Positions 1,334-4,197 of a DNA stretch of 4,569 bases are shown here, piece by piece. The notes beneath the pieces were generated by a model that was not told the DNA's origin, made no database searches, and worked only from the letters and a program-made list of their open reading frames with translations. The translations under genes and the position numbers were made by a program. Positions within the stretch are counted from its first letter, which is position 1. Each line of letters begins with the position of its first letter. This DNA is from a virus (Duplodnaviria; Heunggongvirae; Uroviricota; Caudoviricetes). The stretch lies in IMG/VR virus record IMGVR_UViG_2681813320_000017; one strand, given 5' to 3'.

Positions 1334-1606
1334 TCACCTCGCCGTCAGTTGTTTGGATTTCCGGTAGCCTGCAGCGTAAATGGCTACGTTTGGAAGACAA
1401 GTTGAACCTTCATATTTTCTGGTCAACGTTGTCAGAGTTATAACTTCTGCTCTCATTGCTGGTTTGCGCTTGCATTGCAAGACCACTCGTGAAGGGGTTG
1501 GCCTGTGTAGCTTGTCGGAGCTAATCGACTCCTGACTTTGCAGGTTTGCGCGACGAGCTCTACGGCGAGAAGCTGCGGTGCCTTTAAATTCTGTTTTTCT
1601 GGACAT
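1334..1606 (-). CDS. N: N-like transcription antitermination protein (90 aa) with N-terminal arginine-rich motif
   Basis: The track ORF 1334..1678 has an internal ATG at 1604-1606 preceded by a strong SD (GGGAGGA, about 5 nt spacing). The product starts MSRKTEFKGTAASRRRARRANLQ..., an arginine-rich motif like the boxB-binding ARM of lambdoid N proteins (my recollection is that it is closest to the phage 21 type). It sits immediately downstream of a boxA/boxB nut site, in the position N occupies in lambda. Confidence 0.75.
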   Translation of the reverse strand: MSRKTEFKGTAASRRRARRANLQSQESISSDKLHRPTPSRVVLQCKRKPAMRAEVITLTTLTRKYEGSTCLPNVAIYAAGYRKSKQLTAR

Positions 1607-1704
1607 AGATTCCTCCCGAATAAACTTTGGCGATGCAATCTCGAAGCTCCTCCTGAGACGGTTGCTTCGGCATTGCATCCCACAGCTTATGTGGTTGGGT
1701 GATC

Positions 1705-2023: not shown

Positions 2024-2050
2024 CAAAGAAAACCCGGCACTGAGGCCGGG
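2024..2050 (-). terminator. Rho-independent terminator ending the cI/ORF111/ORF227 operon
   Basis: Minus-strand RNA would form CCCGGC-loop-GCCGGG (plus 2033-2038 / 2045-2050, 6-bp GC-rich stem, 6-nt loop) followed by UUUUCUUU (rc of 2024-2031). It starts 7 nt after the ORF227 stop codon (2057-2059). Confidence 0.6.
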
Positions 2051-2056
2051 TGTGTA

Positions 2057-2740
2057 TTAGGGGGTTGAGACTCCAGAGAGCAATCCGTAGATTTTATATA
2101 CAGCAAATGCTAATGCTGGCAAGCCAAGGGCCCATTTGATTATATCAAGCTTAACATCACTAAGCTTACCTTCTAACTTTGCCTCTTGAACAGAAAGAGC
2201 TGCATCGATCTTTTTTGATTGGGAGTCAAGGGCACTCTCAATTCTACTCGATTGTATGTCCAGACGACTGTTGATTTGTTCGTGCTGAGTAACAACTAAA
2301 TGCTTCATCTCCTTTATATCTGAAGCCATTAGTTCACGCCATTTGGCCATATCAGCCTGCATTTTTGAGGCCACTGCATCCACTTCAGCTTTATTTGCCT
2401 TCAGAAGTGCCTGTATTTCGTTTCTGCTCAAATCGGACATTGCGGTTCCCTGTATAGGAGTTTCCTCGTACGGTGGGATAACATTAGATTGTCCTTTACA
2501 ATCGGCAACCCCTCCTTTATCTACGATTGTAGCAGTTAGCTGGGAATTGGTCGCATCATCCACCATGTTTTTTGGTGAATAAGAGGAAATAGGCGTAGAA
2601 AACAGATTACCTTTTGCTGTTTCCATGAACATCATGAAATCGCGAGTATTAACGTTATTCAGGGAAACTTGCAGTGGTTTAACAATACTTGATGTTTTGT
2701 AAGTAATAGTTAAATCACCTACTTCTTCCGGTTGTTGCAT
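2057..2740 (-). CDS. Hypothetical membrane-anchored coiled-coil protein (227 aa); distal gene of the cassette at the rexAB position
   Basis: ATG at 2738-2740 overlaps the upstream gene's stop (TAATG, translational coupling); stop TAA at 2057-2059. Ser/Thr/Asn-rich N-terminal about 100 aa; central region with heptad-like charged/hydrophobic periodicity (EIQALLKANKAEVDAVASKMQADMAKWRELMA...IDAALSVQEAKLEGKLSDVKLD); single C-terminal hydrophobic helix IIKWALGLPALAFAVYKIYGLL. Not similar to lambda RexA or RexB. Confidence 0.75.
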   Translation of the reverse strand: MQQPEEVGDLTITYKTSSIVKPLQVSLNNVNTRDFMMFMETAKGNLFSTPISSYSPKNMVDDATNSQLTATIVDKGGVADCKGQSNVIPPYEETPIQGTAMSDLSRNEIQALLKANKAEVDAVASKMQADMAKWRELMASDIKEMKHLVVTQHEQINSRLDIQSSRIESALDSQSKKIDAALSVQEAKLEGKLSDVKLDIIKWALGLPALAFAVYKIYGLLSGVSTP

Positions 2741-3060
2741 TACGACTTCGCTCCATTAGAGTTTTGTGCCTCTAATTGTTCGAAAAGAAGAACTATATTC
2801 TCTTGAAGAGCCTTTAGTTGTGCCATTGGCATTATCACAGTGCATTGCTGATTGAGTTCATTTACAGAGCCTATCTGCATATTCGCTCTACCTGGTTGAT
2901 CTGGTATATCATTTTGGGATAGTACCGCAGGTATTGACTTGTTTGCGATAAAATGTATACAAATGAGATTTTTTTCCGCTCCCGGTAGTGGAGCAAAACT
3001 AGCGAAGTCCGCATAGGTTTCAATATAATCCACAGATGGTTTAATTTTGACCGGTTCCAT
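2740..3060 (-). CDS. Hypothetical small protein (about 106 aa); proximal gene of the cassette at the rexAB position
   Basis: Track ORF 2740..3075 begins with TTG (3073-3075) then ATG (3070-3072), neither with an SD. The ATG at 3058-3060 (MEPVKIKPSVDYIETY...) is preceded by GAGAGG, so I place the start there; alternative starts at 3072 or 3075. Stop TAA at 2740-2742 overlaps the ORF227 ATG. No recognisable domain. Confidence 0.65.
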   Translation of the reverse strand: MEPVKIKPSVDYIETYADFASFAPLPGAEKNLICIHFIANKSIPAVLSQNDIPDQPGRANMQIGSVNELNQQCTVIMPMAQLKALQENIVLLFEQLEAQNSNGAKS

Positions 3061-3077
3061 AACGCCTCTCATCAAAT

Positions 3078-3106
3078 ATTGTAGGTTTTTTAATTCAATG
3101 TGTTAA
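3078..3106 (-). promoter_or_regulatory. Candidate sigma70 promoter for the ORF111/ORF227 cassette, independent of cI
   Basis: Minus strand: -35 TTAACA (rc of 3101-3106), 17-nt spacer, -10 TACAAT (rc of 3078-3083), in an AT-rich 108-bp gap between the cI stop (3184) and ORF111. Predicted start site lies just upstream of the GAGAGG SD. Analogous in position to lambda pLIT. Confidence 0.3.
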
Positions 3107-3183
3107 ATGTTGGTGGTGTGTTATTTAAAGTTATTTTGACATCCTCCACGCCCTGAAGGACGGGGCTTGTCGCGTACTTGAAG

Positions 3184-3891
3184 TCACAAACTTTTCAGCC
3201 ACTCCCTTGCCTCGATGTCATCCAGATGACGAGATTGCTTCAGAATACCAGCCACATACTCCACCTTTGCTACTTGATGATAAGGTAACGTTATTGGCCT
3301 GTGGTCCTGGTTGATGCTTGTAAATTGGTATTCTCCATCTCTGTCATAGCCAAGAATCTTGATCATGTTGTGTCCTTCAACGGTTCTGACAAACACCTCA
3401 TCCCCCGGGAATACTTTGGTGTTAGGCTCAATGAGTACATATTCTCCTGATTTTATTCTGGGCCACATGCTGTCTCCTTTCACACGAAGACCAAAGGCAT
3501 CTGGATCATCACTATAAATCTTGAGCCACCCATCGCGCTCTTCGGTCATCTCGATGGCACCATCAACACCAAGAATTGCCTCACCAACCACGCGCACTAA
3601 CCCTTTTTTTAATTTGCCAACAAATGAAAGAGTATCTTCATCATTCGCTCCATTTAACGAAGTGCCGTGCTGAAGCCAAACAACATCAACGTTTAGAAAT
3701 TTCGCAAGCGCATTCATTTTTTCCTGACGCGGTAAAGACTCAGCATTAAACCATTTGCTAACGCCTTTGGACGAAAGAGAAAGGGCACGGGCTATGGCCA
3801 TACCCCTACCATGTTCATCAAGACCAGCTTCTTTACAGGCTTGCGCTAGCCGCTGGGCGAATTCTTTGCGCACTTTTTCATTCTGAACCAT
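3184..3891 (-). CDS. cI: CI-type prophage repressor, N-terminal HTH DNA-binding domain plus C-terminal LexA-like S24 autopeptidase domain (235 aa)
   Basis: ATG at 3889-3891, stop TGA at 3184-3186. HTH-like segment GMAIARALSLSSKGVSKWFNAE; catalytic Ser in GDSMWP (Ser141) and Lys in HNMIKIL (Lys178), with 37-residue Ser-Lys spacing as in LexA. Divergent from cro across a 78-bp operator region. No SD before the ATG, consistent with a lambda-like leaderless pRM transcript. Confidence 0.9.
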   Translation of the reverse strand: MVQNEKVRKEFAQRLAQACKEAGLDEHGRGMAIARALSLSSKGVSKWFNAESLPRQEKMNALAKFLNVDVVWLQHGTSLNGANDEDTLSFVGKLKKGLVRVVGEAILGVDGAIEMTEERDGWLKIYSDDPDAFGLRVKGDSMWPRIKSGEYVLIEPNTKVFPGDEVFVRTVEGHNMIKILGYDRDGEYQFTSINQDHRPITLPYHQVAKVEYVAGILKQSRHLDDIEAREWLKSL

Positions 3892-3969: not shown

Positions 3970-4197
3970 ATGCAAAATCTTGATGAGCCGATTAAAGGTG
4001 TCGGCATCCCTGAAGTTGCGAAGGCTTGTGGAGTTAGCGAAAGGGCTGTCTATAAGTGGCTCAAAAACGGCTTCCTCCCTAAGACTGAGTTTTTTGGGAA
4101 AACGAAATACGCCTCAAAAATCGAAGAGATTTCTGGTGGCAAATATCAAGCAAGCGAATTGCTTGAAATAAGCAAAAAGAACCTTCTGGCAGCATAA
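3970..4197 (+). CDS. cro: Cro-like repressor / HTH DNA-binding protein (75 aa)
   Basis: ATG at 3970-3972 preceded by AAGGG at about 8 nt; stop TAA at 4195-4197. HTH-like segment IPEVAKACGVSERAVYKWLKNG. The track ORF starts at ATG 3937, but that codon lies inside the pR -10 hexamer and has no SD. First rightward gene, divergent from cI. Confidence 0.8.
   Translation: MQNLDEPIKGVGIPEVAKACGVSERAVYKWLKNGFLPKTEFFGKTKYASKIEEISGGKYQASELLEISKKNLLAA

Follow-up and report, generated by a model that had tools for sequence, protein, structure and literature searches.

The window studied here, 4,569 nucleotides of a Caudoviricetes record from IMG/VR (IMGVR_UViG_2681813320_000017), holds the immunity region of a lambdoid Escherichia coli prophage with a 933W-type cI repressor. 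On its minus strand, the cI gene is followed by a non-coding gap and then by a cassette of two genes. The original prediction, made on this DNA from its letters, listed a GC-rich structured element of the gap together with a promoter-like site and proposed a dual expression of the cassette. The element is not a regulatory structure belonging to the cassette itself, as it is a copy of a widespread mini-element of the IS200/IS605 family and is absent from all the homologous cassettes examined. It belongs to a class of this family that is already known, the palindrome-associated transposable elements (PATEs). Comparison of sequences identifies it as a terminal-only PATE, which probably lies as a passive relic at the junction between repressor and cargo, with the leader of the cassette beside it.

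The GC-rich element and its relatives

The terminal-only PATE, a core-deleted mini-element of the IS200/IS605 family, extends over positions 3136-3180 of the minus strand according to a profile search (nhmmer), to copies linked to TnpB, to its fold and to BLAST matches. As originally proposed, the GC-rich element folds into a short hairpin (around 3146-3165), but its extent is 3136-3180 and not 3151-3168. Read on the minus strand, the element is CAAGTACGCGACAAG-CCCCGTCC-TTCA-GGGCGTGG-AGGATGTCAA. It thus opens with a segment of the left end (CAAGTACGCGACAAG), continues with an imperfect palindrome whose arms occupy 3165-3158 (5') and 3153-3146 (3') around the loop TTCA (3157-3154), and closes with a right-end tail of 10 nt (AGGATGTCAA, 3145-3136) whose last bases are TCAA. 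Its left boundary is uncertain and falls between 3178 and 3182. Direct reading of 3120-3195 reveals no open reading frame (ORF), no terminal inverted repeats and no target duplication.

When 77 independent solo copies, all from outside this prophage, are used as a profile, the window is matched at 3180-3136 (E = 2.7e-15, 48 bits) and nowhere else, positions 9-53 of the 53 profile positions being aligned. Among the matches listed, an ORF encoding TnpB ends at most about 100 nt upstream of the core on the same strand, or slightly overruns it, in 28 of 122 core instances, and the distance between the end of this ORF and the core is mostly 12-40 nt. The hairpin CCCCGTCC-TTCA-GGGCGTGG of the window matches the post-tnpB hairpin in 28 loci and in L019 (the L numbers designate the loci and contigs compared), whose ORF carries Pfam OrfB_IS605, Cas12f-like TNB and HTH domains. 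The exact T-variant of the hairpin is present in the full-length element L085. Furthermore, the similarity among more than 100 copies breaks off exactly past TCAA, where the 10 nt that follow the hairpin end. TnpB elements of bacteria as well as of archaea close with this hairpin and tail.

The left ends of the copies were compared in the same way. Solo copies, i.e., those without tnpB, the window copy included, share a left module of about 16-18 nt (...GTGCGCG.CAAGC) that is preceded by a short motif, for example TGAC or TTTAT. In the full-length elements L064, L087, L090, L104 and L110, the left end bears the same hairpin with a GCGCG..AA(A/G)C module before it, and the GTACGCGACAAGC module of the window matches both the solo consensus and these five left ends. 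At the right end of full-length copies, the Rfam models sot0042 and HgcC, which correspond to RNAs overlapping the 3' ends of IS1341-type tnpB genes, match below threshold (E = 2e-4 to 8e-3). Because the PATE hairpin is the last stem of the sot0042 and HgcC models, the window also gives a weak match to HgcC, which is at chance level (15.6 bits, E = 2.8, threshold 50) and is the only one found in the gap by an Rfam scan of the window at E <= 10.

A route to such remnants has been described in Haloquadratum, where IS605-type elements of 1.5 kb shrink to 52 bp via deletion between two near-identical palindromes located near their termini (Dyall-Smith et al. 2011, PMC3119063). In the window, the left- and right-end palindromes of an IS200/IS605 element of the IS1341/TnpB type would have recombined, with loss of the core and persistence of 45 nt. 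Next to a single imperfect palindrome, this remnant retains some 15 nt of left end and the right tail of 10 nt that closes with TCAA. It would most probably be a passive passenger, or a scar, between a conserved repressor module and variable cargo. The PATE encodes nothing, and it does not have the omega-RNA scaffold, so that the element of the window cannot be a guide RNA. Its conservation is found at the sequence level, without compensatory pairs, which fits recognition by transposon proteins in the parent elements better than a local RNA switch. We consider that the PATE is quite probably a passive relic.

Several observations weigh against this reading. The first positions of the profile do not align with the window copy. 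In this subfamily, (T/C)TGAC stands before the copies; the window shows GTGAC (3187-3183), four of whose bases are shared with 933W, and 18 nt instead of 16 separate it from the palindrome. The junction of the window may have arisen via illegitimate recombination instead of a clean insertion. The palindrome also carries a C.T mismatch and a G.U pair, although the other copies of E. coli and L085, which is full-length, share this variant. An empty site, i.e., this cI and cassette lacking the PATE, was sought in vain in 40 E. coli genomes, 5 contigs of IMG/VR and 4 metagenome contigs; because these 49 copies offer none, the insertion of the PATE is inferred and not seen. Lastly, PATEs are also found in the stx1A leader region and beside hok genes, which leaves room for an exapted function.

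Relatives of the element are numerous. BLAST searches with the cassette region gave unexpected short matches in plasmids and in Ralstonia phages, which cover only 3132-3177 of the window. The 45-nt element is matched at 4,060 places distributed over 2,766 plasmid records, most of them from Klebsiella, E. coli and Salmonella, and in 17 IMG/VR stretches, while its consensus used as query gives matches in 540 of 5,426 E. coli genomes. Nearly all the plasmid and E. coli matches fall within unannotated intergenic DNA. The 28-nt core is present at no fewer than 120 genome loci belonging to Proteobacteria, Actinobacteria, Planctomycetota, Nitrospira, Dehalococcoidia and haloarchaea. Multiple identical copies with differing flanks are found in Advenella and Kistimonas genomes. 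These single-hairpin relics of about 45 nt, first described in haloarchaea, are abundant on plasmids and prophages of E. coli, Klebsiella and Salmonella. No description of this PATE class in E. coli phages or plasmids was found in the searchable literature, and a full-text search with the motif sequence gave only unrelated primer matches.

Some copies deserve mention for their neighbourhood. The Stx1 prophage of E. coli E2865 carries a terminal-only PATE in the same orientation (L026:2499-2548), flanked on one side by GAATATGATTATCATTTTC (2461-2479), which resembles a Fur box, and on the other by the start codon of stxA1 (2588). Judging by its position, it is probably located within the stx1 leader or at its start; the record of this phage annotates pR' only. 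Morons are units made of a promoter, a gene and a terminator and expressed from the prophage, a concept that came from HK97/HK022 comparisons. As the homology between Stx1 and Stx2 phages ends about 130 nt upstream of the PATE of L026, this PATE lies inside the stx1 moron, and its role as left boundary of the moron was rejected. Solo PATEs are also found beside the hok/gef locus of the IncI2 mcr-1 plasmid pPK8277-MCR1 (L024:2201-2230), between parA and an IS91-family element in the plasmid pM172-1.1 (L004:3001-3037) and downstream of a ygiW-like gene in an O157 prophage (L023:2498-2548); no empty site was found for the latter copy. Directly downstream of a pertussis-toxin-S1-like gene (L019:2556-3302), and close to a match to the small RNA isrJ (1812-1885), lies a full-length TnpB element (L019:3300-4625) whose right end has the same hairpin. 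The contig L019 is probably a Salmonella prophage.

Two other origins of the element were rejected. An IS91 end was suggested by the first plasmid match, near an IS91 transposase, and was dropped given the TnpB-linked copies and the matching left ends. A decayed tnpB upstream of the element was ruled out, since cI is intact and 98% identical to the cI of 933W up to the junction.

The cI-cassette gap and the promoter-like site

The non-coding interval after cI exists on the minus strand as announced, but it measures 123 nt (3061-3183) and not 108, because the true start of the first cassette gene is ATG 3060. Three candidate starts (TTG 3075, ATG 3072 and ATG 3060) had been listed, and all are located where they were placed; however, the protein starts at the last one and comprises 106 aa instead of 111. 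It had been rightly noted that only ATG 3060 among the three has a Shine-Dalgarno sequence, GAGAGG at 3070-3065. This sequence and the start codon (3060-3058) together cover 3058-3070 of the minus strand. The same ATG is annotated as start in RefSeq (by PGAP in nearly all these records), and the N-termini of homologues (P0002/P0003 and the proteins of L158/L159; MEPVKIK..., MEPTKIK..., MQNIEIK...) align to its Met.

The original prediction also stated that lambda has no such gap. Actually, 112 nt separate the end of lambda cI (37227) from the start of rexA (37114). The gap after cI is 60 nt in 933W and 97-268 nt in six other 933W-type cI loci, where the cargo encodes HigBA, an SDH-type protease, a DUF1828 protein or hypothetical proteins. 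With AGGGGAATTTTCACTCCCCT, the cI-rexA gap of lambda (L003:2116-2227; lambda 37115-37226) has its own small GC stem-loop, so that it is not unusual for cI to be followed by a gap with a short hairpin.

The gap of the window is composed of three parts, namely five bases shared with 933W, the 45-nt terminal-only PATE and a 75-nt AT-rich leader. The leader (3061-3135, minus strand, 28% GC, with an A/T tract at 3135-3115) belongs to the cassette. Compared with those of homologues, it shows weak similarity near the ribosome binding site only.

A candidate sigma-70 promoter is found in this leader on the minus strand (3078-3106). It consists of TTAACA (3106-3101) and TACAAT (3083-3078) separated by a 17-nt spacer, exactly as first described, and with 10 of 12 consensus positions it is the best site of the window and the sole one that reaches at least 10/12. 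On the coding strand of the 123-nt gap, a match of at least 10/12 arises in about 2% of composition-matched shuffles; over the whole window, one such site is observed for 1.27 expected, i.e., there is no excess. Transcription is predicted to start near 3071-3070, which would give a leader of about 10 nt. This predicted start is located downstream of TTG 3075 and of the first ATG, in agreement with the use of ATG 3060. The TTAACA-17-TACAAT site may therefore add a repressor-independent transcription with a very short leader. The existence or not of such a promoter decides the capacity of the cassette to act independently of repressor synthesis. From its consensus match and its position, the chances that this candidate promoter is active appear about even.

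The best-surviving competing explanation, whose chances we place somewhat below even, is that the cassette has no promoter of its own. Its expression would depend solely on transcription from pRM (and pRE), with the cassette as the last portion of the transcript, and TTAACA-17-TACAAT would be a chance occurrence in AT-rich DNA. Inactive promoter-like sites are common in AT-rich acquired DNA, the window has no excess of such sites, and a leader of about 10 nt would be unusually short. The hexamers are unconserved in homologues, as indicated by alignments with L158, L159, L161, L162, L173, L174 and L178. In L158/L160, the homologous cassette starts 45 nt past the repressor, which leaves little room for a promoter and none for a canonical one. 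Furthermore, the presence of a single terminator past the second gene suits one operon. In contrast, the 10/12 site of the window has an ideal spacing and an A/T-rich upstream tract, and it lies on the right strand and in the right place, in a gap where chance gives such a match in only about 2% of shuffles. In addition, neighbouring cassettes of the same hotspot bring promoters. For example, the HigBA-type cassette has its own upstream region with TATAAT and an operator-like palindrome. The proposed layout with dual expression is reasonable with respect to the rexAB position and to the well-placed 10/12 site, but what speaks for the promoter is a consensus match whose hexamers are not kept in homologues.

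Transcripts from pRM would pass the hairpin of the PATE and enter the cassette, as in lambda cI-rexA-rexB. An intrinsic terminator at this place was considered and rejected, because the hairpin is followed by AGGATGTCAAAATAAC without any T-run and was not called by the terminator scan. The lack of a U-tract in the hairpin argues for read-through from pRM into the cassette.

The cassette, the junction and the other explanations

The first cassette gene (2740-3060, minus strand) encodes a 106-aa protein of no known family, which has no match in Pfam, PHROG, PADLOC or NCBIfam and just 6 relatives among 5.8 billion proteins. The second gene (2057-2740, minus strand), whose start overlaps the stop of the first, encodes a 227-aa protein whose N-terminal part is variable; the protein also has a coiled coil of the CCDC90-like type and, at the C-terminus, a hydrophobic helix. 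The match to Pfam CCDC90-like is below threshold, and the protein matches phrog_14825, a group of unknown function. Searches of Pfam, PHROGs, PADLOC, NCBIfam, PDB sequences and the 5.8 billion proteins gave no functional lead for the two proteins, and no homology to RexA/RexB or to catalogued defence was found with PADLOC, Pfam, PHROG functions and NCBIfam. By its position, the cassette is a candidate exclusion module expressed in the lysogen.

Homologues of the cassette were found at eight loci (L158-L162, L173, L174 and L178) and represent five distinct versions. The first-gene products of L173, L174 and L178 are 63-65% identical to that of the window, and the second-gene products of L158-L162 are 54-59% identical to its counterpart. 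Whenever the contig includes the gene upstream, this gene encodes a prophage repressor, several types being represented; the cassette is thus a rare two-gene unit found after various prophage repressors. The gap between repressor and cassette measures 45 nt in L158/L160, about 80 nt in L161/L162, 141 nt in L159, 172 nt in L173/L174 and 228 nt in L178. An intrinsic terminator follows the cassette in all three homologues checked. None of the eight loci contains a PATE, which indicates that the PATE is not part of the cassette.

The cI gene (3184-3891, minus strand) encodes a repressor of 235 aa with HTH and S24 peptidase domains (Pfam HTH_3 and Peptidase_S24), and its stop codon TGA is located at 3186-3184. 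It is about 98% identical to the cI of 933W, and the likeness ends at 3179, five bases beyond the stop. These post-cI bases, CTTCA (3179-3183), are common with 933W and mark the end of all similarity to 933W-type phages. The cI-cassette unit is closed by an intrinsic terminator (2032-2051, minus strand) identified by a terminator scan. By comparison of layouts, it is the positional counterpart of tIMM of lambda and of tM of 933W, the latter being annotated in the 933W record. Further along, the window contains the N gene (1334-1678, minus strand), and cro and cII on the plus strand. The Rfam lambda cIII thermoregulator is matched over its full length at 569-627 of the minus strand (88.5 bits, E = 2e-21), which confirms the context of a lambdoid early-left operon.

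The arrangement of cI plus cassette is found in 40 of 5,426 complete E. coli genomes, with at least 99.7% identity in all. An IMG/VR contig (L020:2584-3288) also carries the PATE and the cassette, located there behind a hybrid repressor. This repressor has a differing N-terminal DNA-binding domain (MENKDIRK...) and an identical C-terminal end (...EYVAGILKQSRHLDDIEAREWLKSL). Its sequence points to a recombination inside cI that would swap the immunity specificity while the downstream unit is retained.

The junction between repressor and cargo has a common form in related loci. After the repressor stop, 933W, six other 933W-type cI loci and L173/L174 carry a relic of the 3' end of a lambda-type cI, CAGTGGCCTGA[A/C]GAGACG[T/C]TTGG (...QWPEETFG*), at L002:3455-3500 for 933W, just past cI in L147-L152 and at L173/L174:2829-2860. 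About 20 nt separate this relic from the stop of the 933W-type cI, and behind other repressors it adjoins the stop directly; variable cargo starts right after it. From these sequences, it looks like the usual recombination linker of a cargo hotspot. The window has no such relic at 3136-3183; the PATE comes after TGACTTCA. Two histories are possible. The PATE could have been inserted 3' of GTGAC into a junction already located at the cI stop, or the junction could have arisen at the element or within it.

It is unlikely, although worth considering, that the PATE acted as an active agent, either by providing the homology that joined the cassette to a 933W-type cI or by being still mobilisable in trans by TnpA. 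The PATE is located exactly where the similarity to other 933W-type cI loci ends and replaces the relic of the lambda cI 3' end. Moreover, 52-bp terminal-only PATEs are suspected to be still mobile (Dyall-Smith et al., PMC3119063), and the identical copies of Advenella and Kistimonas genomes have differing flanks. However, no second cassette joined through the same PATE was found, nor was any empty site. The PATE of the Stx1 phage lies about 130 nt inside the stx1 moron and not at its edge, the homology break of the O157 prophage is about 35 nt away from its PATE, and 45 nt are short for a RecA-dependent exchange.

Less probable still would be the co-option of the PATE, of about 47 nt, as a portable element at the boundaries of phage and plasmid cargo. 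It could serve as a micro-homology linker or as a TnpA-dependent joint, which would ease the passage of cargo cassettes from one backbone to another, or as an RNA stem acting on the stability or translation of the adjacent cargo mRNA. Candidate sites of this co-option are the positions after the 933W-type cI, between the Fur-box-like sequence and stxA1, and beside hok on IncI2 plasmids.

We hold as very improbable the initial idea that the GC-rich stem is a dedicated RNA structure of the cassette (attenuator, processing site or stabiliser), which would give, together with the internal promoter, a dual control similar to that of lambda pLIT. The hairpin sits between cI and the cassette and does form in the read-through transcript, as CCCCGUCC/UUCA/GGGCGUGG with an outer GACA/UGUC stem (-15.1 kcal/mol). 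However, the folding check that had been suggested gives an unremarkable result, since the hairpin goes only modestly beyond chance (z = -1.7, with an equal or better fold in 15 of 200 shuffles) and the whole gap is not unusually structured compared with shuffles (z = -0.08). An alternative hairpin, CGUCCUUCA / GGGCG / UGGAGGAUG, pairs a GGAGGA stretch (window 3141-3162, minus strand; L026:2520-2542) and is the predicted minimum-energy fold of the Stx1 copy. The sequestration of this stretch could be invoked for a role as RNA structure. Nevertheless, the element is a generic repeat present in thousands of unrelated contexts and is absent from all the homologous cassettes examined, and its sequence-level conservation comes without compensatory changes. 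Lastly, a functional omega-RNA gene acting in trans for a TnpB encoded elsewhere is extremely improbable, even if PATEs often encode omega-RNAs (Meers et al. 2023, PMC10055086) and the hairpin is the last stem of a sotRNA/HgcC-type RNA, as only the last 45 nt or so are present, the preceding scaffold of about 100 nt is replaced by intact cI coding sequence and the Rfam match reaches only E = 2.8.

With the terminal-only PATE as the preferred reading, what seemed to be a bespoke stem-loop in a prophage immunity operon is a relic of an IS200/IS605 element, and the result is mainly a correction of annotation. To take this mini IS200/IS605 relic for a riboregulator would be to read too much into it. 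Given the PATE of the Shiga toxin 1 leader region, the effects of such elements on the expression of neighbouring genes or on mosaic recombination may merit a systematic look.

Comparison with known systems

The closest relatives in structure are the 52-bp forms of HqIRS46 and ISHwa23 from Haloquadratum walsbyi (PMC3119063), which share with the PATE of the window a size of about 45-52 nt and an organisation in a left segment, one palindrome and a short right oligonucleotide. Both lack inverted terminal repeats, target duplication and coding capacity, and both have TnpB-type parents with two near-identical palindromes. Unlike the Haloquadratum forms, the window copy is found in a lambdoid prophage of E. 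coli and not in an archaeal chromosome, and its left end is slightly off the subfamily consensus.

The right ends of IS608 and ISDra2 and the 3' stem of TnpB omega-RNAs (sotRNA) resemble the window element by their imperfect hairpin followed by a 10-nt tail that ends with TCAA at the boundary. In IS608, the right end consists of a hairpin, then of a 10-nt tail that reaches the element boundary. In contrast to IS608 and ISDra2, the window has neither tnpA, nor tnpB, nor the omega-RNA scaffold, and its match is below all Rfam gathering thresholds.

Repetitive extragenic palindromes and their mosaic arrangements (REP/BIME), mobilised by RAYT, an IS200-like Y1 transposase, are also single-hairpin, non-coding intergenic repeats with an evolutionary tie to Y1 transposases. 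They differ from the PATE in sequence. Furthermore, the PATE is shared with the ends of TnpB-type ISs across phyla and does not lie in chromosomal arrays, plasmids and phages being its main carriers.

As for the operon, the window is comparable to lambda pRM-cI-rexA-rexB-tIMM, with same-strand cargo after the repressor and one terminator just before oL/pL. The gap after cI reaches about 110-120 nt in both, and a secondary promoter is possible in both. However, the cassette proteins have no family match and are unrelated to RexA/RexB. The lambda promoter pLIT lies inside rexA and serves rexB, whereas the candidate promoter of the window precedes the first cargo gene.

The same slot holds alternative cargos, such as stk, HigBA, an SDH-type protease and a DUF1828 protein. 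Like lambdoid morons, the cassette has a promoter-like site and AT-rich DNA upstream as well as a terminator of its own, and it is located between conserved modules. It differs from them in that it may need only co-transcription with cI.

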